Positions 7,101-41,846 of a stretch of 42,356 nt of DNA are shown piece by piece. The DNA is taken from positions 1-42,356 of the IMG/VR virus record IMGVR_UViG_3300019487_000011. One strand, given 5' to 3'. The notes under the pieces were generated by a model. It was not told the origin of the DNA, ran no database searches, and saw only the letters and a program-made list of their open reading frames with translations. Each line of letters begins with the position of its first letter. Positions within the stretch are counted from its first letter, which is position 1. The DNA comes from a virus. The position numbers and the translations under genes are program-made.

Positions 7101-7915
7101 TCGTCCCTCACCATCCGGGCCAGTTCCCCTTCGGGGAAATCCTTGGGGTCAGCTACCAGTGGCATGAACATTGTAGCATACCCTAGTCGGTTTGTCAACT
7201 CTTTTGTGAGCTTTACCCCCAAAGTGGCGGCGTCCGGGTCCAGCGCCACCTTGATGTGTGGCGTCCCCGCAACAGTCTTTAAACGCCGCAGGTAGTCCCC
7301 TAGCTCCGCCTGACCGTCCAGCGAAAACTGAACGCCTAGCAGAGCCAAGGCGTTCCCCCCCGCCAAGGCGATCTGGGCCGCGCTGACGCTATCCTCGACG
7401 ATCCACAAGCAAGGGGTCCTACGGAACCCGTGGTAGGCATAGAACGGAGTGTTGTTTTCTCGCCACACTCGAATACGCTTGTCAGGATAGGTCCGAGAAA
7501 TGTGGCCCTTAGCAGCCCAGTCATAGCCACGGACCTCCCACACGACCTCGTTAGAAACACCCTCCCTAGCATGGAGCCCTAGACGCGCCGCAAGCCCGGG
7601 GCCCCGGTCGGCGATCGGGACGCGCAGCCGGTCCCATGCCTCGTTTAAGCTATCAGGGGCGGCCAATGGGAACGGGTAGGGCCGGGGCTTAAACGCCGCG
7701 ACCTCCGGGGCGGCCTGGATATCAGAGCGGAACGTGTTTAAATCACACGATGCCCTGTGGCACCGGGCCCCGACTCCCCACTCGTTACGGTACACTGACA
7801 GGCTACGCTCCCCGGACCTGCCCCCGGTACACTTGGGGCAAAGCTCGCCCGAGCGGGAGCCCCCGACTGGGAGCCCCCGCGCCAGTTCCCGAACGGTTAA
7901 ACGTTCGCTAGGCAT
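7097..7915 (-). CDS. DNA primase (zinc finger + TOPRIM)
   Basis: 272 aa. The Zn finger is CPKCTGG...CHRASC. The TOPRIM acidic motifs are IVEDSVSAAQ and ALDPDAA. Confidence 0.8.
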   Translation of the reverse strand: MPSERLTVRELARGLPVGGSRSGELCPKCTGGRSGERSLSVYRNEWGVGARCHRASCDLNTFRSDIQAAPEVAAFKPRPYPFPLAAPDSLNEAWDRLRVPIADRGPGLAARLGLHAREGVSNEVVWEVRGYDWAAKGHISRTYPDKRIRVWRENNTPFYAYHGFRRTPCLWIVEDSVSAAQIALAGGNALALLGVQFSLDGQAELGDYLRRLKTVAGTPHIKVALDPDAATLGVKLTKELTNRLGYATMFMPLVADPKDFPEGELARMVRDE

Positions 7916-8155
7916 CCTCGCGGATAACCTCGCGGATCAAGACTACAACGGCCAGCACTGCAAACAGGTAGAGCATTAGATAGACCCCAGCCACTTTCCC
8001 CGGGCATCCCTACCCGGGTACTAGTCTGTCCCCGTACTCACGGTCCCCCGAGTTTCGCGTAGGGACCGGATGCCCGGTCCGGGTCGCAAGTGGTCAGCGT
8101 TGCCCGGTTACAGTCGGTTACTAGGGACTGTTAGACCTAGAGGGTACTATTCAAA

Positions 8156-8177
8156 GGGGCCCCCGGAAGGGGGCCCC
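8156..8177 (-). terminator. GC-rich hairpin, possible weak terminator or processing site after the amidoligase module
   Basis: GGGGCCCCC-GGAA-GGGGGCCCC forms a 9-bp perfect stem. On the minus strand it is followed only by TTTGAAT, a short U-tract. Confidence 0.4.
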
Positions 8178-8284
8178 GATTCCATGACCGATATCCCTAC
8201 GGTACCGGAATATAATGCCATACCGACCGCGTTTAGTCAAGTGGTATTTTCACCACCGTTTACTATGGCCTGTATCGTAGCCTC

Positions 8285-8316: not shown

Positions 8317-9402
8317 TTACGGGTACGGTCCCGCAATAGCCGCAGGATCGGCGCCCTCTCGACAATCCTCGCACTGGCACATTTCGGATGCATGATCATA
8401 CGGAGGGGGCGCTAATTCAGTACGCCGAGCCTGACCGACCCGGGGAATGGCCCGCACCCGCCCCGCCCCTATCTGTGCATCCTCCCACTGGGCGAAACTG
8501 GACGCAGGGCGCTGTACTACGTGCGCCGCAGGGCCCCGGATGCGCCGAGCACGGGGCACGGGCTGCCCGTCGTCGTCGTATTCCTGATCTTCGTCGTATT
8601 CATCGTCATCGTCGCGGTCCAGGTCCCCGTCTTCCTCTCCGCACGGGTCCCCTTGCCCGCCAGGGTCAGTCTGACTAGACCAAACCTCGGGCCATAGACC
8701 GACCCCGGACAACACATCCGGGGGCGAGCCGTCAATGGCGGGAGTAAAGCACGAAACAAGGCGCGACCACGCGCCCCGGACGGCTTGCGGAGAGCCCGAT
8801 CGGGCCCGGACCTGCCATTCTTCTAGGGCCGCGCATACGTCATAGACTAAGTCAGTGATTGCCCCCGTGGAAACCGGACGCGAACCGCAATAAGTCGCGG
8901 CAGTAACGTCGTTTATACCAAGAAACCCGCCTACACCCCTGTAGTTTCTAAGCGGGGGCCTCTCGCCCGGGCGCAAGAATGAATAACAGACTCCCGTAAG
9001 CAAGCCCCCGCCGTCAATCTGTCCGGTTTCGTATTCGGGGGTCCATGTTACCGCGGGGATAGATTCGCACAGGAACCAGAGAACAGCGACCTGTCGCTTA
9101 AACGGGAATCCGGCCTGGACCTCCGGCATTGACGGAAGCCCGCCCTGCCCCTGGTACCTGAGTCCACGGCCCCAGCCTCTCCCGTATGCTGCGAAATAGA
9201 CAAGCCCGGGCGCGAATAGCGCAATCGGGGCTTGCCCGGACTGTAGGAACTCGGACAGCATGACGATATCCGGGCCCATGAGCGTGACACAGTAGCGCCC
9301 CTCGCGCCCCGGTACCCGGTTCAGGGCCGCTAGCGTGGCGCGTTCAAGTACGCGCCCGCCTACTGGCCGTAACGGTTTGCCCTCGACGTATCGGTAGGTC
9401 AT
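8317..9402 (-). CDS. Hypothetical protein with poly-acidic tract; last gene of the amidoligase module
   Basis: 361 aa with no family recognised. It has a D/E-rich stretch (GEEDGDLDRDDDDEYDEDQEYDDDG) and a Cys-rich C-terminus. The start lies 2 nt after the GATase stop. Confidence 0.7.
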   Translation of the reverse strand: MTYRYVEGKPLRPVGGRVLERATLAALNRVPGREGRYCVTLMGPDIVMLSEFLQSGQAPIALFAPGLVYFAAYGRGWGRGLRYQGQGGLPSMPEVQAGFPFKRQVAVLWFLCESIPAVTWTPEYETGQIDGGGLLTGVCYSFLRPGERPPLRNYRGVGGFLGINDVTAATYCGSRPVSTGAITDLVYDVCAALEEWQVRARSGSPQAVRGAWSRLVSCFTPAIDGSPPDVLSGVGLWPEVWSSQTDPGGQGDPCGEEDGDLDRDDDDEYDEDQEYDDDGQPVPRARRIRGPAAHVVQRPASSFAQWEDAQIGAGRVRAIPRVGQARRTELAPPPYDHASEMCQCEDCREGADPAAIAGPYP

Positions 9403-9404
9403 TC

Positions 9405-10208
9405 CTAGCTTAGCCTCCCGAGCGGTTCCCAGCTATTGGCCCGCAAGCAAGCGTTAAGTACCTTACGCTCGCGCCGGGACAGTTTGCGGGGGCGCTCGTT
9501 ATCGGTCAGGTAGATAACTACCGCATCGTCCTTATATGAGCCCGTGCCCGTTTCGGTCGTGCCACGGGCCCCAAGTGTACCCGGGTAACTGTCGGACAGG
9601 TCATAGTAGCGGCTTCTCCAGTTGCCCGCGCCCGTGGTCTGATACTCGGGACAGCTCATCATGTTGGAGAGCTTCAAGCCCTTGTAGTCCCACCACTGTT
9701 TCTCGTTTACACGAAGAAACTTACCCGCCGCATCCATGACAAGAAACTTATTGTAAGACCCAACGTCCTGTCCCACAATCTCCCAAAACTCGGGCTTGTT
9801 CGCGCCCGGGGCCCCGGCAAGGGCCGTCATGGCATAGAACGCGGTATCCGACATGGCATGGCGCACGTTGCCGTAGTGCTCCCCTAGTGTCTTGTCTGCA
9901 ATGACCCCGTTATGCATGAGATACCCGCCAGCCCCCGGCAACTGGAAAGGGTGCGTATTCTCGCGGGTTATGGGCCCGTGCGTTTTCCACCGAAAATGGA
10001 CCCCTAGTTCTTTGTCCGGCAGGCCCGCCAGCATCGTTTCAATGTAGCGGGCCGGGTCCGCGCAGTCTCCGGGCATGATTTTGTGAACGGCGGGGCCCTG
10101 TTTCGTCATATACATGATGCCCGCGCCGTCCGGGTTATCTTCCCATGCGGATCGGATCAGTTCGCCGGGAATCTCGACCCCGGCAGGCTTGTGGATGATT
10201 AAACACAT
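9405..10208 (-). CDS. Class-II (Ntn-type) glutamine amidotransferase-like protein
   Basis: The N-terminus MCLI supplies a Cys2 nucleophile. Further motifs are NPDGAG, HFRWKTHG, NTHPF and LMHNGVI. Its start overlaps the amidoligase stop (TAATG). Confidence 0.8.
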   Translation of the reverse strand: MCLIIHKPAGVEIPGELIRSAWEDNPDGAGIMYMTKQGPAVHKIMPGDCADPARYIETMLAGLPDKELGVHFRWKTHGPITRENTHPFQLPGAGGYLMHNGVIADKTLGEHYGNVRHAMSDTAFYAMTALAGAPGANKPEFWEIVGQDVGSYNKFLVMDAAGKFLRVNEKQWWDYKGLKLSNMMSCPEYQTTGAGNWRSRYYDLSDSYPGTLGARGTTETGTGSYKDDAVVIYLTDNERPRKLSRRERKVLNACLRANSWEPLGRLS

Positions 10209-10951
10209 TAGCCGCTAACCCCTATTTCTTGAATGAATGCGGCCAATGTCGGCCACTCGGAACGCATGGTAACATACTGAACGTAGGATTTCCAGTCCGC
10301 GACCTTTGCCGCCGACGAGACCCGCGCCCACATTACCAGAGAATGGACGACCTCCAGATTTTTCATAACCCGGTCGGGTCGGATGGTGCCCCGAAACAAC
10401 CGCAGTTCCGCAGTATTCGGGGTCAGGTTAAGGGCCTGATAGCGGCCCGCCTCCCTGTAGGACTCGGGGACCTTGCAGTTCCGCCATTGCTTCTTTTGCA
10501 TTGCCGCCCAACGGTTGTTAGACCGTTGAGCCAGTAGTTCCATGAGCCGCAAGTTTGCGGGCTCATTGATGAAAAGGTAGAGCTTCGCAAGGGTCAGGTT
10601 CGACAAAGCCCCTCGGTTTATGTGAATGTGCATACCGCATCTTTGAGTACGAGAGCCGGACATCGCAAGGGGCGCGAGGGGCGCGAGCACTGCCCGCCAG
10701 TCGAACGCCTCTTTATGCTGTTCGATTGTCATGGGGACCGTGACAATTTCCACGCCTGCGTTTAGACTTCCATCCTCTTTGCAGAAGTAGTCATTGCGCG
10801 AGGGCAGGGCCCGCAGTATCTCAGACTGCGAGCTATGGCTCCGGGGCTCAACCTCCAATTCCACACCGAAAACAAGGGCATCGGGCCGGAACGACGGGAA
10901 CGCGCAAACAGCCTCAGCCCGCAATGAGTACCTGTGAAGGGTCATGCTCAC
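10208..10951 (-). CDS. Amidoligase (Amidoligase_2 / GCS2-glutamine-synthetase-like family)
   Basis: Motifs FGVELEV, KEDGSLNAGVEIVTVP, CGMHIHI, RYQALNL and TAELRLFRGT. The GTG start overlaps the upstream stop (GTGA). Confidence 0.8.
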   Translation of the reverse strand: MSMTLHRYSLRAEAVCAFPSFRPDALVFGVELEVEPRSHSSQSEILRALPSRNDYFCKEDGSLNAGVEIVTVPMTIEQHKEAFDWRAVLAPLAPLAMSGSRTQRCGMHIHINRGALSNLTLAKLYLFINEPANLRLMELLAQRSNNRWAAMQKKQWRNCKVPESYREAGRYQALNLTPNTAELRLFRGTIRPDRVMKNLEVVHSLVMWARVSSAAKVADWKSYVQYVTMRSEWPTLAAFIQEIGVSG

Positions 10952-11481
10952 GGCTGCGCCGTATCGGCGCGCATAATCCCGTGCGCCGCGTCAAACGGGC
11001 ACACCGGGACCTTAATGCGTAACCACTTGCGCGTAATACCCATGGTGTACCTGCACTCCGGACAGGTCACTTTGATTAAACGCGCCTCCGGGGGCTTGCC
11101 CGGGGCATGCGCGCCCACCTTTAGGGCACTGTGCGGGTACGGGGGCAGGGTTTCACAAACACGGCGGGCCCGTTCGCCTAGCGTTTCAATTTCGCCCGCA
11201 GTGGGGGCGCGATGGGTTGCGATACGCGCCGCCTCCATGACTACGGCCCGGGCGACCTCTAAAGAATCGGCCACGGTAGGGGATACGAAAATCTCCCAGT
11301 GGCCACCCTCGGACTGTGCGGGCTCGTAAGACTCAATAACGCGACCAGCCCCCCGGCCCTTGTGAGGGAAGCCTACGCTGATGTGCGTATTCTCGGGCAG
11401 GTCGGACCCGACCGGCCACCCCGCAGTAACGCGGGTAAGGCAGGCCCGAAGCCACGCCTCCCGAGTGTTGATATGTTGCAC
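10948..11481 (-). CDS. SprT-like fold protein with C-terminal zinc ribbon; HExxH motif degenerate
   Basis: 177 aa. Its architecture parallels the 13363..14046 protein (ISVGFP..EIFVSP..helix..Zn ribbon CPEC..RKW..CP). The HExxH position reads MEAAR. It is the first gene of the leftward operon. Confidence 0.6.
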   Translation of the reverse strand: MQHINTREAWLRACLTRVTAGWPVGSDLPENTHISVGFPHKGRGAGRVIESYEPAQSEGGHWEIFVSPTVADSLEVARAVVMEAARIATHRAPTAGEIETLGERARRVCETLPPYPHSALKVGAHAPGKPPEARLIKVTCPECRYTMGITRKWLRIKVPVCPFDAAHGIMRADTAQP

Positions 11482-11514: not shown

Positions 11515-11543
11515 ACTCTACTGCTACGCCATAGGCCCGTCAA
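11515..11543 (-). promoter_or_regulatory. Leftward early promoter (TTGACG-N17-TAGAGT)
   Basis: The minus strand has TTGACG at 11543..11538 and TAGAGT at 11520..11515. GGAGGA and the GTG start of 10948..11481 follow downstream. Confidence 0.6.
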
Positions 11544-11581
11544 GTTAGATTTTCTTAACGCTCGTTAAGTTTTCTAACTTG
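11541..11581. promoter_or_regulatory. 41-bp compound inverted repeat between divergent promoters (candidate operator)
   Basis: Outer arms are CAAGTTAGA and TCTAACTTG (9 bp). Inner arms are CTTAACG and CGTTAAG (7 bp). Both -35 hexamers sit in the outer arms. Confidence 0.6.
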
Positions 11582-11606
11582 ACACTGCCCTTAGACCTGC
11601 TAAACT
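11579..11606 (+). promoter_or_regulatory. Rightward promoter (TTGACA-N16-TAAACT)
   Basis: It mirrors the leftward promoter. Both -10 elements are followed by GGCCCCA. Confidence 0.55.
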
Positions 11607-11683
11607 GGCCCCAAGGTAAAGTTTACAGGTCCGGGGGCACTAGAGGCTACAGGGTAGCTCGCCCCCGGGCCGGGAGTCAAGCG

Positions 11684-11950
11684 GTGGACCTGATAGAATA
11701 CAAGCCTTCGACGTTTCGCCCTCTGGTACTGATACCGGGGCGAGCGAAGCCCTATACTGCATCCCGCGAGTTTAATCGCGTAGAGGATGCGGAACAGTGG
11801 GCCCGGGGCTTTGTTCAGCGTCCCGGCACGTTTATCAAGCTTGGGACCTCGGTTCACATCGGGGACCGCATCTATGCCGTTGTGCTAACGGAACGCGGCG
11901 GGGCCTTGTTGACTTTCGTCGGCCCCAAGCGTACACTGGCCGCAACATGA
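11684..11950 (+). CDS. Hypothetical protein
   Basis: The ORF-track start (TTG at 11579) coincides with the -35 hexamer. The GTG at 11684, 7 nt after GGGAG, is a better start and gives 88 aa. Confidence 0.4.
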   Translation: MDLIEYKPSTFRPLVLIPGRAKPYTASREFNRVEDAEQWARGFVQRPGTFIKLGTSVHIGDRIYAVVLTERGGALLTFVGPKRTLAAT

Positions 11951-12419
11951 ATTTCGGAATCTGCAAGCCTCCCGCCCCTGTCGCTGGGCCGCTACTGTTT
12001 CAGGTCCGGGCGATCTTCGCCCGAGCCCTCGCCCGCGCCACTGGGCGCGGCTCTCGCCCCGCGACCTTTACCGCGTCCGCTATAAGTCGCCGTGATAGTC
12101 GGCCCGCAAGCCGCTACAATGGCGCAGTAAGCCGGACACCTCGCCCGCATTGTGGCCCCGGGGCGCGACCCCCGGGGAGTGTGCGGGAGTGAGGTTGCCG
12201 GTAAACGCGGAGAATGGCGAGAGTAACGGCACGGTCCCCCGGTCACACCTCCCCTTTCTGGCGGGGCCCAATCCGGGGGCCGCTTTCCGTGAGGGCCGGT
12301 CGGGGGTTGTCCCGGGCCTGAATCAGCATGCACAATCTTGTGCATATTGGTCTGCCGCAGTCTGTTTTTGCAGCCTGCGGAGCGGGCAATAACCATGATT
12401 TAAAATGGTATCTAGGACT

Positions 12420-12524
12420 ATGAAAGGACCCCCGCGGCTCAAGTTTACTTTGATCCTAGTTTTGGTAATATGGGCCCTGTACATTTACTGGAAACTGTGG
12501 CGCAAAAGCCGCAAGGGAGAGTGA
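12420..12524 (+). CDS. Possible 34-aa single-pass membrane peptide
   Basis: MKGPPRLKFTLILVLVIWALYIYWKLWRKSRKGE. It lies immediately upstream of the next small gene. It is below the ORF-track cutoff and has a weak RBS. Confidence 0.25.
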   Translation: MKGPPRLKFTLILVLVIWALYIYWKLWRKSRKGE

Positions 12525-12525
12525 T

Positions 12526-12669
12526 ATGTCAAAGTCCTATCGCGTGATTGACTCGCGTGTAAACGCGACACACTCCACAGGCCACGGGCTTTTCTTTGCC
12601 CTTGCCCTGTGCCGGGACCTGAATCGCCGGGGCATGTGCCCGGGCCGATACATCGTCAGGGCCGACTGA
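12526..12669 (+). CDS. Small protein, paralog family member A (YRVxD...LNRRG..GRY)
   Basis: 47 aa, ATG 4 nt after GGGAGAG. It shares a motif and spacing with 13116..13361 and 14217..14408. Confidence 0.5.
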   Translation: MSKSYRVIDSRVNATHSTGHGLFFALALCRDLNRRGMCPGRYIVRAD

Positions 12670-12789
12670 TGAATACCGGCCCAACCATTGCGGTGTCGTC
12701 GTGCATTTGGCTATTTGCTACTGGCCATTGGATAGCTCTGGGGCCGTAGCCTTTGGGTTTATTCTGCTGGGGACTCTGGTCGTAGACCG

Positions 12790-13119
12790 ATGAGCACGAA
12801 AAAACACCCTCTAGTAGCAGGCGGGCTCATGTGCGGGCTTGCCCTCCTAGCGTCAGGGTGCACGTCGGTCCGACCCGATTATGTAACGCTGGGAGCCTTT
12901 CACATATCCCAGCCGGATGCGGGTCCGGGGCCGTGGCCAATCGGGAACGGGGACCGTACCCGGGAGACTACCCTAGACGGGCTGGAACTGGGAGCCGAGT
13001 GGCGGACAGGGCCCGTGTACGGTACCGTGACCCTTTCCCGGTCCCTGACTCACGGTCTAGAGGCGGGCCGGACCTTTGCCACGGTCCGGGCCGGGTACCG
13101 GCTGCGCGTCCCGAAATGA
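12790..13119 (+). CDS. Putative lipoprotein
   Basis: 109 aa. The signal peptide has a lipobox (LALLASG|C). The mature part is beta-rich. Confidence 0.6.
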   Translation: MSTKKHPLVAGGLMCGLALLASGCTSVRPDYVTLGAFHISQPDAGPGPWPIGNGDRTRETTLDGLELGAEWRTGPVYGTVTLSRSLTHGLEAGRTFATVRAGYRLRVPK

Positions 13120-13361
13120 TGCCCCCCAAGTGGTCGCGCCTAAACGTGGTGCCCCTTAGCCCGCTATGGCGGGTCCGGTCCCGAGTCACGGGCCAGGAGA
13201 GTACCACCCCGACCGACCTAGACCGGGCCCGGGAGACTTGCGCTATCCTGAATAGGACGTTCGGGGCCGACACTTACCATCCCTTCCCGCACAGACCGGG
13301 CAAAGGCCCCAAAGGAAACGGCCCGGGCGAGGGGCCCGGGCCGGTAGGAAGGGCGGCTTAG
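13116..13361 (+). CDS. Small protein, paralog family member B
   Basis: The ATG at 13116 overlaps the lipoprotein stop (ATGA). 81 aa, with WRVRSRVTG...AILNRTFG..Y matching the family motif. It is the C-terminal part of ORF 12831..13361. Confidence 0.45.
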   Translation: MMPPKWSRLNVVPLSPLWRVRSRVTGQESTTPTDLDRARETCAILNRTFGADTYHPFPHRPGKGPKGNGPGEGPGPVGRAA

Positions 13362-13362
13362 A

Positions 13363-14046
13363 TCAGCCGCTTTTAAACTCCGTTCCACACTTGCCGCACG
13401 TCGCCCGGAAGTCGTCCGCCGCTACCCGGGCAATAACCCCGCACTCGCAGACCCATTTACGGAGGCGCGAGCCCGAGCCGACGCCACGCGACCGGCCACC
13501 CCGGGAACCGACCCCGGCAGCACACGGACGGACGCGAGTGAGGCCGAGAATCTGGCCGAGCGTGGCCGGGGCCTGATTCCAGCTTATCACCTTGCCGTCA
13601 TCCGGGGCCGGGAGCGCCGCGAGCAAGGCGCGAAGGGCCGGGACGAACATGGCCGACTGGTAGACCGTGCCCGCCGCCTTGATATTACGGAGGCCGAGCC
13701 GTTTACACGCGGTAAGCCACTCCTTGGAGTGGCCCTTACCCTTACCGGCGACCGCGTGGCCCATTTCGTGGATCACGGTCCCGGCCAACTGAACAAGCGA
13801 TTCCTCGGCAAACGCGCATATCTCAATAAGGGCATCGTGCGAGTCATGGCCACACTCACACTGGCCCTTCGGCCCTTGCCATGCGTTGTAGTACGTGAGG
13901 CCACGGGCCCCGGTGCCGTACCCGGTGCCGTAGATCATCTTGAGCCCTGAGAGCATGGAACGCTCAGCCGGTTCCAGAACCGCGACCGAAAGGGCCGCAT
14001 CACGGACCGCGTTAATGTAATGTTCCCTTGTCATCATGCTGGCCAA
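13363..14046 (-). CDS. SprT-like zinc metalloprotease with C-terminal zinc ribbon
   Basis: 227 aa with an intact HEMGH motif followed by GHSKEW, and a C-terminal CECG...CGKCG ribbon. It is the only minus-strand gene in the rightward accessory region. Confidence 0.8.
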   Translation of the reverse strand: MASMMTREHYINAVRDAALSVAVLEPAERSMLSGLKMIYGTGYGTGARGLTYYNAWQGPKGQCECGHDSHDALIEICAFAEESLVQLAGTVIHEMGHAVAGKGKGHSKEWLTACKRLGLRNIKAAGTVYQSAMFVPALRALLAALPAPDDGKVISWNQAPATLGQILGLTRVRPCAAGVGSRGGRSRGVGSGSRLRKWVCECGVIARVAADDFRATCGKCGTEFKSG

Positions 14047-14216: not shown

Positions 14217-14408
14217 ATGGCCTACATGGTGCGCGACACACTGACAGGGCGAGCGGTCCGGGTCTATGCCCGGACCCGCCTGTACGAAGCTTCGGTAATG
14301 GTGGCCGAGCTGAACCGGCGCGAACTGGGCCGGTACGTGGTCAAGGGCTGGGGCGCGGATCGGATGCCGACCTTCCCCGAGCCGGTGCCTCTGTATCTCA
14401 CGGACTAG
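14217..14408 (+). CDS. Small protein, paralog family member C
   Basis: 63 aa, ATG 7 nt after GGAGGG. The motif is YMVRDTLTG...AELNRRELGRYVV. Confidence 0.65.
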   Translation: MAYMVRDTLTGRAVRVYARTRLYEASVMVAELNRRELGRYVVKGWGADRMPTFPEPVPLYLTD

Positions 14409-15065: not shown

Positions 15066-15094
15066 TTGACAAATTCCCTTAATTTTGTTATAAT
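15066..15094 (+). promoter_or_regulatory. Consensus sigma70 promoter P1 (TTGACA-N17-TATAAT)
   Basis: Exact consensus hexamers with a 17-nt spacer, set in an AT-rich patch of a GC-rich region. Confidence 0.75.
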
Positions 15095-15126: not shown

Positions 15127-15348
15127 GTGCAGGAAGTGAGCGACCACGGGCCTCGGGACTCCCTAGGGGTCGCCCGAGGCGAGACTCCGAAGGAGTCGAG
15201 CGGTCCGGTCCCGCTCGACTCCTTCGGAGTCTCGCGGAGGGAGCCGAAACGTCGTAAACCGGCCTTTAAGTGGGCCCTACGTAGGGTTAAGTACTACGGC
15301 GGTATGAAAGTACCCAGTTTCTTGCAGAAACCACTTGACAGAACCTAG
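15127..15348 (+). CDS. Questionable 73-aa basic ORF downstream of P1
   Basis: GTG lies 6 nt after AAGGAG. However, the ORF contains the 25-bp perfect hairpin and runs into P2, so it may be non-coding. Confidence 0.25.
   Translation: MQEVSDHGPRDSLGVARGETPKESSGPVPLDSFGVSRREPKRRKPAFKWALRRVKYYGGMKVPSFLQKPLDRT
15150..15235 (+). other. Structured element: 8-bp hairpin plus perfect 25-bp stem / 7-nt loop, containing three GACTCC-N3-GGAGTC-type palindromes
   Basis: 15179-15203 pairs perfectly with 15211-15235, and 15150-15157 pairs with 15173-15180. The palindromes lie at 15157-15171 (imperfect), 15183-15197 and 15217-15231. No U-tract follows. Confidence 0.9.
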
Positions 15349-15363
15349 GCCCTGTGGTATAAT
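15335..15363 (+). promoter_or_regulatory. Consensus sigma70 promoter P2 (TTGACA-N17-TATAAT)
   Basis: Exact consensus, about 40 nt upstream of ATG 15404. Confidence 0.75.
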
Positions 15364-15403: not shown

Positions 15404-16018
15404 ATGGCCTACGCTAAGTTTACGTTCTTTGAGGCGGCTACCCAGCACGGGTTCGTCATGGCTTGCATGTCGGACAAGGTGCAGAAGTCCCGGGAGTTCC
15501 ACCAGATCATCATTGACCCCACCCGGGGTCGGGTGTTCCAGTTGTTCAAGTCCCGGGACCCGGAGCGTCCGTTCTTCGAATACGTCATCCCCGAGCGGTT
15601 GATGACCGAATCGAACTACATGTGGCGAGCCAAGGTCAAAGGGGAGCTTGAAAAGCTATGGGGCAAGATGCTACGGGAGAGGGCGAAGGCCCGCTCGACG
15701 GGACCGGAGGGCCCCTGTGGACCGGACACTACGGTTCCCTCCGAATCTCAGCCCTTGAGCCCTTCTGCATCATCGACCGATGCGCTGCCGAAGTCGGAGT
15801 CCTTGAGTTCCGAGTCCGAGGGGACGGTACCCGCTCCGCAGGGCTCCGGCCCCGGGCCATCGACCCCGGAATTCTCGCCAACCGGGCCAGCTTCTTCACT
15901 GGCCTCCGAGCTTCCATCGCAGAAGTCGGGGTCAAGGTCCCGATCCTCGTCTGGGGCATCAAAGGCAAGCTCTGGCTCCGCTACGGCGCGAGCCGGGTCC
16001 ACGCCTGCGAATGGCTAG
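15404..16018 (+). CDS. Hypothetical protein; globular N-terminal ~100 aa, then a Ser/Pro-rich tail overlapping the ParB-like frame
   Basis: 204-aa ORF. The C-terminal half is low-complexity and overlaps ORF 15658..16194 by 361 nt in another frame. Confidence 0.5.
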   Translation: MAYAKFTFFEAATQHGFVMACMSDKVQKSREFHQIIIDPTRGRVFQLFKSRDPERPFFEYVIPERLMTESNYMWRAKVKGELEKLWGKMLRERAKARSTGPEGPCGPDTTVPSESQPLSPSASSTDALPKSESLSSESEGTVPAPQGSGPGPSTPEFSPTGPASSLASELPSQKSGSRSRSSSGASKASSGSATARAGSTPANG

Positions 16019-16544: not shown

Positions 16545-16615
16545 GCCACTGACGCTGCGGAGCGTCCCGGTCTCCAAAACCGACAGATGGGGTTCGACTC
16601 CCTACAGTGGTGCCA
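16545..16615 (+). tRNA. tRNA-Trp (CCA)
   Basis: Acceptor GCCACTG/CAGTGGT. Anticodon loop CTCCAAA (CCA at 16574-16576). T-arm TGGGG-TTCGACT-CCCTA. Encoded CCA. Very short D-arm with loop GCGG. Confidence 0.6.
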
Positions 16616-16657
16616 AACGTCAGCCGCTAGAGACGTACCCGAAAGGGCCTTGCAACT

Positions 16658-16742
16658 AGCGGACCTATATTGCGGTCGGTCCAGTGACCGACAGGGGCTC
16701 ATAACCCCAGTTAGCCGGGAGCGTCACCCGGGGCCGCTACCA
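16658..16742 (+). tRNA. Aberrant tRNA-like element with CAU anticodon loop (Met/fMet/Ile2-type?)
   Basis: Acceptor AGCGGAC/GGCCGCT (6 of 7 pairs). Anticodon arm GGGG-CTCATAA-CCCC (CAT at 16700-16702). T-arm CCGGG-AGCGTCA-CCCGG. A73 plus CCA. There are 10 nt instead of 2 between the acceptor and a 5-bp D-stem. Confidence 0.3.
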
Positions 16743-16749
16743 AGTTTAT

Positions 16750-16822
16750 GCGGATACGCACAAGGCGTGTCGTCCGCCTTCTAAGCGGTGCAGTAGGGGT
16801 TCGATTCCCCTTATCCGCTCCA
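16750..16822 (+). tRNA. tRNA-Arg (TCT), copy 1
   Basis: Acceptor GCGGATA/TATCCGC. Loop CTTCTAA (TCT at 16780-16782). T-arm AGGGG-TTCGATT-CCCCT. Encoded CCA. Confidence 0.7.
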
Positions 16823-16825
16823 ATT

Positions 16826-16896
16826 CTCCCGAGCGCCGAGCGCACGGACCGCTTCTAACGGTCTGGGGCTAGGTTAGATTCCTAGGCGGGAGGCCA
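16826..16896 (+). tRNA. tRNA-Arg (TCT), copy 2
   Basis: Acceptor CTCCCGA/GCGGGAG. Anticodon stem GACCG/CGGTC with loop CTTCTAA (TCT at 16854-16856). T-arm CTAGG-TTAGATT-CCTAG. Minimal D-arm. Encoded CCA. Confidence 0.55.
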
Positions 16897-16900
16897 AAAT

Positions 16901-16976
16901 CGCCGTGGCCCGAGGGACTTCGGGGCACAGTTTACGAAGCTGTAGCGCGTAGGCTCGACTCCTACCACGGTGGCCA
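16901..16976 (+). tRNA. tRNA-Arg (ACG)
   Basis: Acceptor CGCCGTG/CACGGTG. D-arm CCGA-GGGACT-TCGG. Loop TTACGAA (ACG at 16934-16936). T-arm GTAGG-CTCGACT-CCTAC. Encoded CCA. Confidence 0.7.
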
Positions 16977-16977
16977 A

Positions 16978-17052
16978 GCCCTTGTAACCTTAGTGGCAGA
17001 GGCTCTGTCTTGTAAACAGAGTGCCGGGGTTCGATTCCTCGCGGGGGCTCCA
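16978..17052 (+). tRNA. tRNA-Thr (TGT)
   Basis: Acceptor GCCCTTG/CGGGGGC. D-loop TAGTGGCAG. Anticodon stem TCTGT/ACAGA with loop CTTGTAA (TGT at 17011-17013). T-loop TTCGATT. Encoded CCA. Confidence 0.8.
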
Positions 17053-17056
17053 ATTC

Positions 17057-17131
17057 GCGTTCATAGCTGAGACGGATTAGCGAGGGTCTGAAAAGCCCTA
17101 GAGCGTGGTTCGATACCACGGGAACGCACCA
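17057..17131 (+). tRNA. tRNA-Phe (GAA)
   Basis: Acceptor GCGTTCA/GGAACGC. TA plus D-arm GCTG..AGC with GG. Loop CTGAAAA (GAA at 17090-17092). T-arm CGTGG-TTCGATA-CCACG. Encoded CCA. Confidence 0.85.
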
Positions 17132-17136
17132 ACTAC

Positions 17137-17213
17137 GCCTCCGGGCGCGTCTGGTAGACGTGAACGGACTGTCGATCCGATGTAGGAGGGTTCGATTCCC
17201 TTCGGAGGCGCCA
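17137..17213 (+). tRNA. tRNA-Asp (GTC)
   Basis: Acceptor GCCTCCG/CGGAGGC, perfect. D-loop CTGGTAG. Loop CTGTCGA (GTC at 17171-17173). T-loop TTCGATT. Encoded CCA. Confidence 0.8.
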
Positions 17214-17218
17214 AATTT

Positions 17219-17291
17219 GCCCGGTGTCCCTAGTGGGCAGGAAGCTCTTACAAAGCATCCGTGCAGGGAGCGTAACCTTGACTGGGTACCA
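17219..17291 (+). tRNA. tRNA-Val (TAC), non-canonical T-loop
   Basis: Acceptor GCCCGGT/ACTGGGT. Loop CTTACAA (TAC at 17249-17251). T-arm CAGGG-AGCGTAA-CCTTG, with no TTC. D-arm CCC-TAGT-GGG. Encoded CCA. Confidence 0.5.
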
Positions 17292-17295
17292 GACA

Positions 17296-17374
17296 GTGGT
17301 GTGGTAAGGCGATATAGCTGAGCCGTGCGGTTGTGACCCGCAGATACAGGGTGCAAGTCCCTGACCTCACCCCA
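17296..17374 (+). tRNA. tRNA-His (GTG)
   Basis: Anticodon arm TGCGG-TTGTGAC-CCGCA (GTG at 17333-17335). T-arm CAGGG-TGCAAGT-CCCTG. C73 plus CCA. Acceptor has one mismatch. The D-region is unusually long. Confidence 0.55.
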
Positions 17375-17379
17375 AATAC

Positions 17380-17454
17380 GCATCGCTGGTGTCAAAGCAG
17401 CATGACCGGCTCTTACCCGGTACGGTGTAGGTCCAAGTCCTACGCGATGCACCA
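17380..17454 (+). tRNA. tRNA-Lys (CTT)
   Basis: Acceptor GCATCGC/GCGATGC, perfect. Arm ACCGG-CTCTTAC-CCGGT (CTT at 17412-17414). T-arm GTAGG-TCCAAGT-CCTAC. D-loop lacks GG. Encoded CCA. Confidence 0.65.
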
Positions 17455-17455
17455 A

Positions 17456-17529
17456 CACTAGATGACCGAGCGGCTAGGCCGCGCCCTGCAAAGGCGCGTA
17501 CCCGGGTTCGAATCCCGGTCTAGTGTCCA
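17456..17529 (+). tRNA. tRNA-Cys (GCA)
   Basis: Acceptor CACTAGA/TCTAGTG, perfect. Arm GCGCC-CTGCAAA-GGCGC (GCA at 17488-17490). T-arm CCGGG-TTCGAAT-CCCGG. Encoded CCA. Confidence 0.85.
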
Positions 17530-17534
17530 ATACG

Positions 17535-17567
17535 GCTTCGCCGTCTCAGACGCGAAGCGTCTTTTAT
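17535..17567 (+). terminator. Terminator-like hairpin + U-tract inside the tRNA array
   Basis: GCTTCGC(C)GTC-TCA-GACGCGAAGC forms 7+3 bp with one bulge, followed by GTCTTTTAT. It lies in the only long spacer (38 nt) of the array. Confidence 0.45.
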
Positions 17568-17644
17568 GCCCCGCTGACGGAATTGGCATACGTACCTGTC
17601 TTAGAAACAGGGTTTTCCGAGTTCGACTCTCGGGTGGGGTACCA
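17568..17644 (+). tRNA. tRNA-Leu (TAG) with short variable region
   Basis: Acceptor GCCCCGC/GTGGGGT. D-loop GAATTGGCATA. Arm CCTGT-CTTAGAA-ACAGG (TAG at 17602-17604). Only a 5-nt variable region. T-arm CCGAG-TTCGACT-CTCGG. A73 plus CCA. Confidence 0.65.
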
Positions 17645-17648
17645 ATAT

Positions 17649-17722
17649 CTCTGGCTGGCCTAATGGCTGGGCACGTGCTTTGGGAGCACGGGATAGGGGT
17701 TCGATTCCTCTGCTGGAGACCA
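17649..17722 (+). tRNA. tRNA-Pro (TGG)
   Basis: Acceptor CTCTGGC/GCTGGAG. D-arm GCCT-AATGGCT-GGGC. Arm CGTGC-TTTGGGA-GCACG (TGG at 17681-17683). T-loop TTCGATT. Encoded CCA. Confidence 0.85.
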
Positions 17723-17726
17723 ATTT

Positions 17727-17798
17727 GCGGGCGCCGCAAGGCGCGACGACACGTTGCCAACGTGACCGACTGGGATTCGAGTTCCCTCGCCCGCTCCA
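17727..17798 (+). tRNA. tRNA-Gly (GCC)
   Basis: Acceptor GCGGGCG/CGCCCGC, perfect. Loop TTGCCAA (GCC at 17756-17758) on a 4-bp stem. T-arm GGGA-TTCGAGT-TCCC. Reduced D-arm. Encoded CCA. Confidence 0.6.
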
Positions 17799-17802
17799 AT
17801 TT

Positions 17803-17879
17803 GCACCTATCGTCTACGTTAGCTAGGATGCTGGGCTTTCACTCCGGCTAACAGGGGGCAGCACCCTGTAGGTGTACCA
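17803..17879 (+). tRNA. tRNA-Glu (TTC), non-canonical T-loop
   Basis: Acceptor GCACCTA/TAGGTGT. Loop CTTTCAC (TTC at 17838-17840). T-arm CAGGG-GGCAGCA-CCCTG. D-loop lacks GG. Encoded CCA. Confidence 0.55.
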
Positions 17880-17884
17880 AGATC

Positions 17885-17968
17885 GTAGTGCTAGACCGCT
17901 ATGGAGACGGGACCGGCTGTAACCCGGTCGCTTCGGCCCTCTAGGTTCGATTCCTAGGCACTGCACCA
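17885..17968 (+). tRNA. tRNA-Tyr (GTA), class II
   Basis: Acceptor GTAGTGC/GCACTGC. Arm ACCGG-CTGTAAC-CCGGT (GTA at 17919-17921). 12-nt variable arm with a GC-TTCG-GC hairpin. T-arm CTAGG-TTCGATT-CCTAG. Encoded CCA. Confidence 0.85.
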
Positions 17969-17973
17969 ACTAT

Positions 17974-18051
17974 TCCGCTCTAGCTCTCAAGGTGAGAGCA
18001 ACTGGCTGTTAACCAGTATGGAGGGTGGTTCGATTCCACCGGGCGGAGCCA
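17974..18051 (+). tRNA. tRNA-Asn (GTT)
   Basis: Acceptor TCCGCTC/GGGCGGA. TA plus D-arm GCTC..GAGC with GG. Arm ACTGG-CTGTTAA-CCAGT (GTT at 18008-18010). T-arm GGTGG-TTCGATT-CCACC. Encoded CCA. Confidence 0.85.
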
Positions 18052-18055
18052 ATTC

Positions 18056-18133
18056 CGGGGTCTGAAGGGAACAGGCAGACCTACTTGGCTCAAACCCAAG
18101 TGTTTCCGGGTTCGACTCCCGGGGCCCCGACCA
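18056..18133 (+). tRNA. tRNA-Leu (CAA) with short variable region
   Basis: Acceptor CGGGGTC/GGCCCCG. Arm CTTGG-CTCAAAC-CCAAG (CAA at 18091-18093). 5-nt variable region. T-arm CCGGG-TTCGACT-CCCGG. A73 plus CCA. Confidence 0.6.
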
Positions 18134-18211
18134 TTAAGCTGTGGGTTGCTGGTATCCCACTCGCGCTCTGAACGCGGGACCACGTAGGTTCAAATCCTAC
18201 GCTTACCGCCA
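18133..18211 (+). tRNA. tRNA-Gln (CTG)
   Basis: D-arm TGGG-TTGCTGGTAT-CCCA. Arm TCGCG-CTCTGAA-CGCGG (CTG at 18168-18170). T-arm GTAGG-TTCAAAT-CCTAC. Encoded CCA. Acceptor pairs 1-72 and 2-71 are mismatched, and the 5' end abuts or overlaps the previous CCA. Confidence 0.7.
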
Positions 18212-18216
18212 ATTCT

Positions 18217-18308
18217 GGAAGAGCAAGCCAACTGGCGATGGCACCCGTCTTGAAAACGGACGAGCCCTAACACGGCCTTGAAGGTTCAACTCCATTCCTC
18301 TTCCGCCA
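18217..18308 (+). tRNA. tRNA-Ser (TGA), class II
   Basis: Acceptor GGAAGAG/CTCTTCC, perfect. D-arm GCC..GGC with GG. Loop CTTGAAA (TGA at 18251-18253). Long variable arm of about 20 nt. T-loop TTCAACT. Encoded CCA. Confidence 0.8.
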
Positions 18309-18314
18309 AACAAT

Positions 18315-18388
18315 GCCCGAGTCGTCCAATGACAGGACAAGCGGCCGATTACCGCTGAATGTGGGTTTGATTCCTACCTTGGGTACCA
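18315..18388 (+). tRNA. tRNA-Ile (GAT) with unusual anticodon loop
   Basis: Acceptor GCCCGAG/CTTGGGT. D-arm GTCC-AATGACA-GGAC. Arm AGCGG-CCGATTA-CCGCT (GAT at 18347-18349), with C at position 33 and T at 37. T-arm GTGGG-TTTGATT-CCTAC. Encoded CCA. Confidence 0.6.
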
Positions 18389-37086: not shown

Positions 37087-37613
37087 TTAGCCAGCACTAC
37101 AAAGACCAGCTACGTACGCTCCACGACCGGGACGTTATGTGGGGGTCTAGCGCAGCCCGCTGGTTAGACGACGTGGTAGCCCACGGAGAGAAGCTACAGG
37201 CCCGGACCGTACTTGATTACGGGTGCGGCAAGGGACACCTGAAGCTAAGCCTGAAGGGCTTCGATGTATCGGAATACGACCCGGGCATCCCGGGCAAGGA
37301 CGGCCCGCCAGCGACTGTGGACATGGTGGCTTGCCTCGACGTGCTAGAGCATATCGAGCCTGACCATCTGGACGCGGTGTTGGCGGATATCAAACGTTTA
37401 AGCTTCAAAGGGGCGCTACTGGTCGTAGCCCTCTATCCATCGGGAACCAAGCTCCCAGATGGGCGGGATTCCCACCTAATCATTCAGCCGCCTGAGTGGT
37501 GGGTCCAGAAGATCGAAGGCGCCTTCGGCCCGGTAGAGTGGGAGCACAAGGCCCGCCCGACCCGGAATCCCAATCGCGTCAAAGACGTGATCGTTGTAAA
37601 GGCGTGGACATGA
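37083..37613 (+). CDS. Class I SAM-dependent methyltransferase
   Basis: Motif I is VLDYGCGKGHL. A DMVACLDVLEHI motif is also present. The ATG at 37083 overlaps the upstream stop (ATGA). Confidence 0.8.
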   Translation: MISQHYKDQLRTLHDRDVMWGSSAARWLDDVVAHGEKLQARTVLDYGCGKGHLKLSLKGFDVSEYDPGIPGKDGPPATVDMVACLDVLEHIEPDHLDAVLADIKRLSFKGALLVVALYPSGTKLPDGRDSHLIIQPPEWWVQKIEGAFGPVEWEHKARPTRNPNRVKDVIVVKAWT

Positions 37614-38128
37614 AGAAGCTTTTTGCGGCCCTTGTGGCCTCCGTCTGTCTTGCGTTCCCTGCTTTCGCCCAGACCCGCCTACCGGGTCCATCATCCATCA
37701 GCCCCGAGACAGCAGAAATGCTGTTCCTCACGGAGATGGACGCATGGCGCACGGCTTGCCGGGAGATGAAGGTACTGTGCTCGGCGTGGGCTCCCCCGGT
37801 CGTAACCTACGGCCTACTGAAGGGCCCGTTCGGGCGGTACGAGCTAGGCTCGCACACGATCCAGTTGGACATTCGCATCCTAGGCCAGTCCTTCTCGTAT
37901 GTGGTAATGGTCCACGAAATGGTCCACTACCTACAGTACACGGTCTTCGGCCCGATCCTGTCATCTTGTGAGGCAGAGGAACAGGCGTTCCGCATCGGCA
38001 TGAAGGTGGCGCTGGACCTGAACATTCAAGACCCACGGATCAAAACGTGGACCGAAATGAAACACCTATACGGATGCGGCCCGCTGCCGCCACGGAGAGA
38101 CACATGGCGATCTGGGACAAGGTTCTAG
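37610..38128 (+). CDS. Secreted HExxH metalloprotease-like protein
   Basis: The ATG at 37610 overlaps the upstream stop (ATGA). The signal peptide is MKKLFAALVASVCLAFPAFA|QT. It carries an HEMVH motif. Confidence 0.65.
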   Translation: MKKLFAALVASVCLAFPAFAQTRLPGPSSISPETAEMLFLTEMDAWRTACREMKVLCSAWAPPVVTYGLLKGPFGRYELGSHTIQLDIRILGQSFSYVVMVHEMVHYLQYTVFGPILSSCEAEEQAFRIGMKVALDLNIQDPRIKTWTEMKHLYGCGPLPPRRDTWRSGTRF

Positions 38129-40958: not shown

Positions 40959-41128
40959 TTGGTGGCTTCTTTTAGTTCGGCCATAGCTTTTTCAATTCGG
41001 TCCATCATCTTCTGGGATGCCGTGTACCACTCCGCGTCCTTTTCGAACGACTCGATTTCGCACCTAGCATCATCGAGGGCCCGGTAGGCAAGCTCCAAGG
41101 TGGCCTTGTCTACTAGGTGCTTGTTCAT
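40955..41128 (-). CDS. Hypothetical helical small protein
   Basis: The ATG at 41128 overlaps the upstream stop (ATGA). 57 aa. Confidence 0.5.
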   Translation of the reverse strand: MNKHLVDKATLELAYRALDDARCEIESFEKDAEWYTASQKMMDRIEKAMAELKEATK

Positions 41129-41523
41129 CGCGGGCCTCGGCAAGGGCAGTTCTCGTCGCGGCAGTACCAGTCCCAGTCGGCCGGAAGGGCTACGCACGAT
41201 ACCGTGGGCCCCTTAAGGGACAGGGCCAGTTCTTCCTCGGCCAACTGTAGCGAAGCCAGAGCCCGCCAAGCCCGGTTGCGAAGGTGCTGTACCTTCTCTT
41301 CCAGAGTCGCGGCCTTTAGTGCGTCTACCGAGTGCCGGGCGATGCAATCCTCGTGGTCCGTGGACTTCTCCCGGGCCCAGTGCAAGGGCTGTCCGGGATT
41401 GTGCTTCTCGTTGCCCTCAAAGGACACCCGGGCTACGCCCACTAGGGCGTCCGGGAAGTAGGCTACAACGCCCGAGAACAAAGGGATTCGTTTACGTTCG
41501 GCGGAATCAGTAGGTAGGGTCAC
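41125..41523 (-). CDS. Nucleotide pyrophosphohydrolase-like protein (dATP/dGTP diphosphohydrolase N-terminal-domain-like)
   Basis: DSAERKRIP...YFPDAL..VARVS..GN.KHNPGQPLHW.R.KS.DH.D...RH matches my recollection of that phage domain family. GTG start lies 5 nt after GGAGA. Confidence 0.5.
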   Translation of the reverse strand: MTLPTDSAERKRIPLFSGVVAYFPDALVGVARVSFEGNEKHNPGQPLHWAREKSTDHEDCIARHSVDALKAATLEEKVQHLRNRAWRALASLQLAEEELALSLKGPTVSCVALPADWDWYCRDENCPCRGPR

Positions 41524-41525
41524 GC

Positions 41526-41846
41526 TTATCTCCAATATGAACGAACAACGTTAGCCAGCATGACCAGCCCGAAGGCTATCCACGTTCCGGCTCGAATGGC
41601 GTCCCCGAGCATGAAGGACGCCAGAATACGAAGGCCCGCCGTACACCCGGCGAATACCACAAGAGCGTCCAGTAGGGTCGTACCCGGCGTAGTCACCAGC
41701 CGATAAATGCTGTACCCGATCAGTAGTTGCATCGGCGCGTACAGCCAAAGGTTATGTAGCCACGGGCCCGGCAGGGTACGGTACAGATACTCCAGCACTA
41801 CGGCAGGGACACCGGCACCGAGGCCCCACAAAAAGGCCGGGCTCAC
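41526..41846 (-). CDS. Multi-pass membrane protein
   Basis: The GTG at 41846 overlaps the upstream stop (GTGA). About 106 aa with three hydrophobic segments. Confidence 0.5.
   Translation of the reverse strand: MSPAFLWGLGAGVPAVVLEYLYRTLPGPWLHNLWLYAPMQLLIGYSIYRLVTTPGTTLLDALVVFAGCTAGLRILASFMLGDAIRAGTWIAFGLVMLANVVRSYWR

Follow-up and report, generated by a model that had tools for sequence, protein, structure and literature searches.

An amidoligase and class-II amidohydrolase gene pair in its smallest version seen, set in a four-gene unit of an uncultivated tailed phage

Results

The four genes and their junctions

The virus record IMGVR_UViG_3300019487_000011, analysed here over its 42,356 nt (hereafter the window, i.e. 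the whole 42.4-kb stretch), looks like the complete genome of an uncultivated tailed phage. It carries four consecutive minus-strand genes, A to D, of which B and C encode an amidoligase and an amidotransferase-type hydrolase and are the main subject of this study. Gene A (10948..11481, −) encodes 177 aa with a degenerate SprT-like (zincin) domain and a C-terminal CxxC...CP..H zinc ribbon; gene B (10208..10951, −), a 247-aa Amidoligase_2 protein in a minimal form, without the usual N-terminal extension; gene C (9405..10208, −), a 267-aa stand-alone amidohydrolase of the class-II glutamine amidotransferase type, i.e. an N-terminal nucleophile (Ntn) enzyme with Cys1; and gene D (8317..9402, −), a lineage-specific orphan of 361 aa. 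A previous sequence-only reading of this DNA had proposed the same four open reading frames (ORFs), all of which are present, and its four domain descriptions hold. The sequence shows the junctions that it described: A and B are joined by GTGA (...CCGTGAGCATG...), in which the start codon GTG of B and the stop codon TGA of A overlap, B and C share 1 nt in TAATG (...GGCTAATGTGT...), so that C begins M-C-L-I-I-H, and C and D are separated by 2 nt in TAG-GA-ATG (...TAGGAATG...). Such close packing is common in phage genomes and, taken alone, says little.

Gene B belongs to the Amidoligase_2 family

Gene B scores 27.3 bits against Pfam PF12224 (Amidoligase_2), above the gathering cut-off of 22, and also matches PHROG amidoligase families; ten out of ten diverse homologues likewise exceed the PF12224 cut-off, with 22.8–38.2 bits. 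Over nine sequences, down to 24% identity, the residues E31, E33, D60, S62, E68, H108, H110, R113, R143, E182 and R184 are invariant. This acidic/His/Arg set would fit an active ligase of the glutamine-synthetase (GS)/GCS2 type, and metal, ATP and acyl-phosphate roles can be presumptively assigned to its members. B did not match any PDB sequence, either alone or as a profile, nor the Pup-ligase family in the Pfam scan. Four exact motif matches aside, two pattern scans over 185,579 bacterial species representatives returned no close relative.

In other lineages, the B ORF is ~350–660 aa long and begins with an acidic, Cys-rich extension with repeated CxxC (median 211 aa), for which there is no match in Pfam. 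At the IMG/VR loci L004–L094, this extension takes up the N-terminal 100–280 residues of the amidoligase and differs between lineages. Only loci that also have A show the bare 247-aa form; B of the window lineage has lost the Cys-rich N-terminal domain.

Gene C has the catalytic and glutamine-binding residues of class-II enzymes

Gene C starts with the codons ATG TGT, giving M-C, as do 86 of its 87 homologues. Taken alone, C remains below the Pfam cut-offs (GATase_6, 22.8 vs 27; GATase_4, 15.3 vs 23). A profile of its family (33 sequences) matches the E. coli GlmS glutaminase domain (1XFF, E=1.9e-12), PurF (7.5e-7), the YafJ-like 3MDN (1.8e-6) and also 1TE5; its relatives exceed the GATase_4 cut-off and score best on this family, the stand-alone YafJ type. 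Conserved positions are C2, N25, G28, G30, H71, R73, T76, H77, G78, N84, H86, P87, H99, N100, G101, S120, D121 and T122, and the motifs align to HTRWATHG...HP...HNG of GlmS with an almost 1:1 numbering. Note that R73, N100, G101 and D121 are invariant in 33 representatives; among 80 sequences, conservation is 97% for R73 and 97% or more for each of N100, G101 and D121. C therefore has the features of a class-II enzyme, namely the Cys after the initiator Met, the equivalents of GlmS Arg73, Asn98-Gly99 and Asp123, and the profile match, but lacks the C-terminally fused acceptor (synthase) domain of GlmS, PurF, AsnB and GltB: only ~70 residues, without a domain match, follow its core, as in the stand-alone YafJ-like type. 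The pairing of an amidoligase with a class-II amidotransferase (GAT-II) that the sequence-only reading had put forward is real.

In GlmS, Arg73 and Asp123 hold the α-carboxylate and the α-amino group of glutamine, respectively. Given these roles, C should act on free glutamine or γ-glutamyl-X, and not on internal protein glutamine. A C-type GATase is fused to a GGACT/AIG2 γ-glutamylamine cyclotransferase in MW202828 (L123, 3501-4718, E=7.5e-18) and in phage C75C1 (L124, 3501-4397, E=2.7e-21); the C75C1 fusion starts MCLIIHKP and has an amidoligase just upstream. In public annotation, both fusions appear as γ-glutamyl cyclotransferase only.

B and C are nearly always adjacent, and A and D are confined to close relatives

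A pattern scan with the B alignment detected the B family in at least 593 IMG/VR contigs. Gene neighbourhoods were compared at the 80 best loci and at cultured-phage loci, with 86 loci scored for B–C adjacency and 94 for A and D. C directly follows B on the same strand at 85 of the 86 loci, with gaps mostly of −1 to +39 nt, which is far beyond chance. The two genes are never fused at these loci, as expected if C must begin at Cys1. A was found at 8/94 loci and D at 4/94, all of them close relatives of the window phage save one distant A homologue (P0014), which has no amidoligase beside it. The order A-B-C-D followed by a primase-like gene, with overlapping or nearly abutting junctions, is kept in L008, L009/L010 and L012; in L014, A-B-C is kept and the contig ends just after C. 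Across the syntenic contigs, identity to A falls from 86% to ~60%, and D is 69%, 41% and 38% identical.

No constant third neighbour was found upstream or downstream of B–C across the loci, nor a conserved small tag gene. Among 61 ORFs downstream of B–C at 24 diverse loci, the recognisable ones mainly encode primase, primase/helicase, DnaB-like helicase, polymerase or exonuclease; B–C thus usually lies at the head of a replication module, and this recurrence beside primase, helicase and polymerase genes makes a DNA-related role possible. Since no other family is a constant neighbour and A and D are limited to one lineage, the conserved functional unit is B–C, and the four-gene module is a lineage-specific elaboration of it. 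The sequence-only reading had taken the four genes for one module: co-conservation holds for B and C, found together almost everywhere, and does not extend to A and D beyond close relatives.

Gene A is a SprT-like homologue that has lost its zinc-binding motif

Gene A has no match in Pfam and matches phrog_6361 (E=2.4e-13). We found 14 homologues in a collection of 5.8 billion proteins, and tblastn returned 57 phage records at ≥80% coverage and ~28% identity; most genes at the listed matches, among them those of cultured Microbacterium, Streptomyces, Arthrobacter, Bordetella and Pseudomonas phages, bear the annotation 'SprT-like protease'. In the alignment, the SprT outgroups (among them P0013, P0014, FlameThrower gp45, Pan1 gp68 and a paralogue encoded in the window) have HExxH followed by GH. 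At this position the A clade reads V-M-E-A-A-R-I, the glutamate alone being kept, and a ~17-residue deletion removes the third His, i.e. the third zinc ligand; the clade still has TRExWL, YPH and, at the C terminus, the CxxC...C-P zinc ribbon. By hhalign, A is colinear with the intact window paralogue (HEMGH, 13363-14046; E=0.004). A thus belongs to the SprT-like family by homology over its whole length, lacks the HExxH and the third ligand of a zincin and, judging from the sequence, should not be a metalloprotease; the earlier description of a SprT-fold protein that has lost HExxH agrees with this alignment. The AlphaFold2 (AF2) model of A has a predicted local distance difference test score (pLDDT) of 78.7, and Foldseek found no PDB match to it at E≤0.001.

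Compared with the phage 'SprT-like protease' family (phrog_6361 and others, distant from the Spartan/Wss1/SprT zincins), A shares TRExWL, YPH and the zinc ribbon; unlike A, the other members are not beside amidoligases. A is not demonstrable as a split-off N-terminal extension of the amidoligase, because BLASTP of A against the extensions of fused amidoligases gave nothing significant.

The window paralogue (13363-14046, −; 227 aa) has an intact HEMGH, belongs to phrog_6361 and scores 19 bits, below the cut-off, on Pfam SprT-like. A terminator with a 10-bp all-GC stem and a T-run lies directly 3′ of it (13319-13343). L008 and L014 have this paralogue upstream of A as well. In the window and in L008, the two SprT-like genes enclose a small cassette of opposite orientation (11579-13119, +) containing an ORF with a lipoprotein signal (12790-13119; ...LLASGC...).

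Gene D is a conserved orphan with a hyper-acidic linker

Searches of Pfam, PHROGs, NCBIfam and PADLOC returned nothing for gene D; those of NCBIfam and PADLOC were uninformative. An exhaustive search of 1.84 billion cluster representatives yielded 13 representatives of D, and a word-indexed search only 2 hits, as it was swamped by the acidic low-complexity stretch. Profile hidden Markov models of its N- and C-terminal halves, searched against all ORFs of the 94 loci, matched in the four syntenic contigs only. By its sequence conservation, D is a genuine gene. Its N-terminal domain (1-225) is basic, confidently folded in AF2 and contains the motif GGxxLxRAxxAAxNRVPGRxGRY; an invariant TDPGGxGDPxG precedes a hyper-acidic linker (226-285) with 21 acidic and 2 basic residues in 60; the C-terminal part has an SSFxxWE motif and then a Cys cluster, shorter in the window copy. 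The overall isoelectric point is 4.77. The AF2 model (pLDDT 66.6) had no Foldseek match at E≤0.001 in PDB or BFVD, and a BLASTP comparison of D with the C-terminal extension of a long GATase showed no significant similarity. In the alignments, neither A nor D, nor their homologues, end in a conserved Gln or Glu.

Transcription signals around A–D

A consensus scan placed a σ70-like promoter candidate for the A–D unit at 11515..11543 (−; TTGACG-17-TAGAGT, 9/12), 34 nt upstream of the start of A; the GTG start codon itself is preceded, at 11 nt, by the Shine-Dalgarno sequence GGAGGA. The 7.8 kb around this promoter candidate contain 11 promoter-like sites vs 1.9 expected, and the site at 11543-11515 is to be regarded as a putative promoter. 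Downstream of D, a gap of ~400 nt with its own promoter-like site (8240-8212, −) precedes the primase-like gene, so that A–D may be a transcription unit separate from the replication genes. From their position, A–D would be early genes. That they are the very first genes expressed, as the sequence-only reading had it, was a deduction from position as well and lacks support as it stands: the perfect 12/12 promoters (15066 and 15335) face rightward, and the intact SprT-like paralogue with its own terminator is upstream. For the counter-defence or host-takeover role suggested in the same reading, PADLOC and literature searches gave no evidence in either direction; PADLOC models, which cover defence systems and not counter-defence, matched none of A, B, C, D and the SprT-like paralogue.

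A structured RNA candidate between D and the primase-like gene

A structured RNA candidate of ~220 nt (7985-8208, −) lies in the gap that follows D, and the promoter-like site 8240-8212 is just upstream of it. DNA conservation of this gap across relatives is higher than that of the flanking genes. RNAalifold on four sequences predicts 44 pairs; double changes that preserve pairing are seen in 12 of these, and the minimum free energy z-score is −2.07. The core is an invariant hairpin, CCGGGCAACGCUGACC(A/C)CUUGCG(A/U)CCCGG; a search with the invariant 21-nt core found 20 further stretches in metagenomic and viral contigs, most in unrelated gene contexts. Among 10 non-identical examples that have the 3′ tail in common, the hairpin with invariant loop, the helix and the pseudoknot are present in 9/10, L114 having a weak P2 match. 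The helix, of 8–11 bp, is formed by five different yet complementary sequences across homologues, and the pseudoknot, pairing the loop CC(A/C)CUU with the tail AAG(U/G)GG, covaries perfectly in 10/10. Rfam 15 has no match for the element, which appears to be a structured leader or a small RNA not described so far. It is absent from the other B–C loci, and hence independent of the amidoligase pair.

The RNA element is followed immediately by a hydrophobic ORF of 22 codons (7908-7976, −; MLYLFAVLAVVVLIREVIREDA), whose overlap with the primase-like start codon is 8 nt. It is kept in L008, L009 and L012.

Relation to known pairs

The amidoligase/GAT-II pairing proposed by Iyer et al. in 2009 is reportedly noted in the Pfam description too. 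According to the account of it given in PMC10580990, the phage pair was predicted by Iyer, Abhiman, Burroughs and Aravind (2009). It has been reported without functional data in LUZ24-like phages and in phage tf (PMC3890496, PMC3517423), and annotated pairs occur in LUZ24-like phages, phiEco32, mycobacteriophage Marvin and the OM43 phages MEP401/402. We found homologues in the same amidoligase-then-GATase order in Marvin (gp105/gp106), MEP402 (gp06/gp07), MW202733 and StenR_269. The window contains the 2009 neighbourhood, i.e. an Amidoligase_2 gene adjoining a GAT-II gene on the same strand, but differs from the pairs elsewhere in that its B is a bare 247-aa catalytic domain, where the others carry the Cys-rich acidic extension of ~200 aa. 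The LUZ24/phiEco32/StenR_269-type loci form larger clusters with genes for ATP-grasp, COOH-NH2 ligase (PF14395) and γ-glutamyl cyclotransferase (present in UFV-P2 and StenR_269), none of which was found among the scanned window ORFs; the window instead has the dead SprT-like gene upstream and the acidic orphan gene downstream. The unit is thus a lineage-specific variant of the cassette predicted in 2009, in which a minimal ligase is joined by a dead SprT-like partner and an acidic orphan.

The pair is readily recognisable to a specialist and occurs in cultured Pseudomonas, Mycobacterium, Stenotrophomonas and marine OM43 phages as well as in the IMG/VR contigs counted above. Sixteen years after the prediction, an experimental substrate for it was not found in the literature searched.

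Discussion

The reading that we favour, tentatively and at somewhat less than an even chance, is that B and C form a two-enzyme amide-bond cassette in which B performs γ-glutamyl ligation and C cleavage. B, as an ATP-dependent ligase of GS fold, would activate a carboxylate as an acyl-phosphate, most likely the γ-carboxylate of glutamate, and join it to an amine on a target. C, a Cys1 Ntn hydrolase, would use Arg73 to hold the free α-carboxylate and Asp121 the α-amino group of a glutamine-like moiety, with Asn100-Gly101 as the oxyanion hole, and so cleave γ-glutamyl amides, trimming or removing what B installs. A and D would probably serve in target recognition or be themselves the target. These last roles we infer from their position and from the loss of the N-terminal domain of B, just as we infer the γ-glutamyl chemistry and the expression timing; that A and D are merely neighbours is about as likely as their being specificity factors or targets.

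The ligate-and-cleave logic has precedents. Mycobacterial ergothioneine synthesis uses EgtA, a GCS2-type γ-glutamylcysteine ligase, and EgtC, a class-II GATase-type γ-glutamyl amidohydrolase of the YafJ-type GATase_4 family; in butirosin synthesis, γ-glutamyl protecting groups are likewise ligated and then removed. Compared at the level of Pfam families, B–C resembles EgtA/EgtC in joining a ligase of the GS/GCS2 clan with a stand-alone Cys1 Ntn hydrolase for a γ-glutamyl head group. It differs in that the Egt pathway has an enzyme acting between ligation and cleavage; none is evident here, and EgtB/D/E-type genes are absent.

The main competitor as to chemistry, which we regard as rather unlikely, is a split glutamine-dependent amidotransferase, in which C would make ammonia from glutamine and B would amidate an ATP-activated carboxylate, in the manner of MurT/GatD or asparagine synthetase. 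Every glutamine-binding and catalytic residue of GlmS is kept in C, B and C adjoin strictly 1:1, the stop codon of one often overlapping the start codon of the other, as genes of heteromeric enzymes typically do, and ammonia is a natural nucleophile of GS-fold enzymes. A precedent is MurT/GatD (PMC3267633), which amidates iso-glutamate in peptidoglycan and whose ligase-like subunit and separate glutaminase are encoded side by side and transcribed together. However, MurT has a Mur-ligase fold and GatD a class-I triad, where B would have a GS-like fold and C is a class-II Ntn enzyme. To our knowledge, all characterised class-II amidotransferases have the acceptor domain fused C-terminally, and heteromeric systems use class-I or amidase-type glutaminases; we favour ligation and cleavage over ammonia transfer because the C family falls among the stand-alone enzymes of YafJ/GATase_4 type, because the fusion of a C-type domain to γ-glutamylamine cyclotransferase in MW202828 and C75C1 indicates cleavage of γ-glutamyl amines and not ammonia supply, and because the StenR_269 cluster contains a γ-glutamyl-cyclotransferase-like gene. 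AIG2 cyclotransferases take the place of the GATase partner in Firmicutes, as a Pfam note has it, which also speaks against ammonia transfer. γ-Glutamyl-removing enzymes, in short, repeatedly accompany this ligase.

Several points nevertheless weigh against the ligation-and-cleavage cassette. With no enzyme between the two steps, the cycle would seem futile, short of an intervention by a host enzyme or by the target itself. The residues of C would serve a plain glutaminase activity equally well, and the putative fold of B is assigned through Pfam only. The synteny of A and D in close relatives can reflect common descent, both genes being absent from ~80 other B–C loci. Finally, the literature searched gives no substrate, product or phenotype for members of the pair, only comparative-genomic statements.

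A different question is how far the module extends. It is quite possible, if not quite an even bet, that only B–C is a functional unit and that A and D are unrelated early genes, chance neighbours in a young phage lineage; this is compatible with either chemistry. The sparse occurrence of A and D reported above, confined to close relatives but for one distant A homologue, and the want of a universal third partner around B–C agree with it, as do the SprT-like proteases that adjoin polymerase genes in many phages without an amidoligase, P0014 not being followed by one either, and the overlapping junctions common in phage genomes. Set against this, order and tight junctions are kept down to ~60% (A) and 38% (D) protein identity, B without its N-terminal extension is found only where A precedes, A is a dead enzyme yet conserved with its zinc ribbon, which suggests a binding role, and the ~400 nt with a promoter-like site and structured leader that divide D from the replication genes set A–D apart. 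The more elaborate proposal, that an amidoligase having shed its built-in Cys-rich targeting domain works with A as an adaptor and with D in a protein-directed γ-glutamylation/deglutamylation system, strikes us as improbable; if true, it would be a new kind of phage-encoded reversible modification, post-translational or DNA-associated, at the onset of replication.

Modification of DNA or of the nucleotide pool for restriction evasion, by placing an amino-acid-like group on a base or by amidating a carboxylated base, appears very unlikely. The genes downstream of B–C are mostly primase, helicase, polymerase and exonuclease genes at the 24 loci, as in the window, although this position may reflect early or middle timing only; the A family is related to DNA-protein-crosslink proteases, and the window has a MazZ-like dGTP/dATP diphosphohydrolase domain elsewhere. 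In viral contigs, some thymidine-hypermodification clusters are also accompanied by uncharacterised amidoligase and amidotransferase genes (Lee et al, 2021; PMC8989533). In the window, by contrast, Pfam and PHROG scans of the replication-arm ORFs (those below ~100 aa being only partly scanned) found none of the thymidine-hypermodification markers, i.e. dUMP hydroxymethylase or TET/JBP, 5-HMUDK kinase and aGPT-Pplase. The absence of a thymidylate-synthase-like or hydroxymethylase gene noted by the sequence-only reading holds for the scanned ORFs, among which DpdA/QueC-type and PurZ genes were not found either, and the pocket of C is made for a free amino-acid head group. Very unlikely, too, in our estimate is a pupylation-like tagging, with C deamidating the C-terminal Gln of a tag, B ligating the resulting Glu to lysines, and D or a small protein as tag or target. 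Iyer et al. are said to have placed PafA and Dop, in 2008/2009, among the GS-like carboxylate-amine ligases, a general fold class that would include B; a terminal Gln keeps its free α-carboxylate, so that C could act on it, and D has an exposed acidic disordered segment. But B does not match the Pup-ligase family, neither A nor D and its homologues have a conserved C-terminal Gln/Glu, other lineages have no conserved small tag gene beside B–C, and a terminal Gln has no free α-amino group for Asp121 to bind.

With a 247-aa ligase, a 267-aa hydrolase and two candidate specificity factors in a 3.2-kb operon, the window offers the smallest version of the pair that we have seen and a convenient construct for co-expression and mass spectrometry. 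Given the free amino-acid pocket of C and the cyclotransferase fusions, γ-glutamyl amides are the substrates to try first.

Other features of the window

The DNA similarity search over 50,697 phage records returned no nucleotide-level relative of the window and no match to the A–D region. The window DNA polymerase is ~40% identical to those of VpV262-like Vibrio phages and of Stenotrophomonas phage StenR_269. The leftward arm encodes the primase-like protein, a metallophosphoesterase, a DnaB-like helicase, DNA polymerase A, an exonuclease and endonuclease I, and the rightward arm terminase, portal, capsid and tail proteins.

An ORF at 41125-41535 (−) contains the MazZ-type dATP/dGTP diphosphohydrolase N-terminal domain (PF18909, 34.7 bits vs a cut-off of 27). 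The MazZ type is linked to 2-aminoadenine genomes, and a Z-genome pathway was considered on this account and dropped, there being no PurZ-like gene among the scanned ORFs; for the same reason, the ORF probably encodes just a MazG-like enzyme.

The two perfect 12/12 σ70 consensus promoters (TTGACA-17-TATAAT, each with an extended −10 TG) lie at 15066-15094 and 15335-15363 (+) and face an ORF at 15404-16018 and a tRNA array; both are better matches than the site upstream of gene A. The array (16545-18388, +) comprises 15 tRNAs by ARAGORN, to which Rfam adds a weak tRNA match (16545-16612) and a match to the tRNA-Sec model (18217-18304, 49.2 bits vs a cut-off of 47) that may be a long-arm tRNA instead of a true tRNA-Sec. 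Two short ORFs, 12526-12669 and 14217-14408, have a common ...LNRR..GRY(I/V)V motif. At the end of the structural arm, an ORF at 37496-38128 (+) combines an internal signal-peptide-like start (MKKLFAALVASVCLAFPAFA) with a HEMVH metalloprotease motif.

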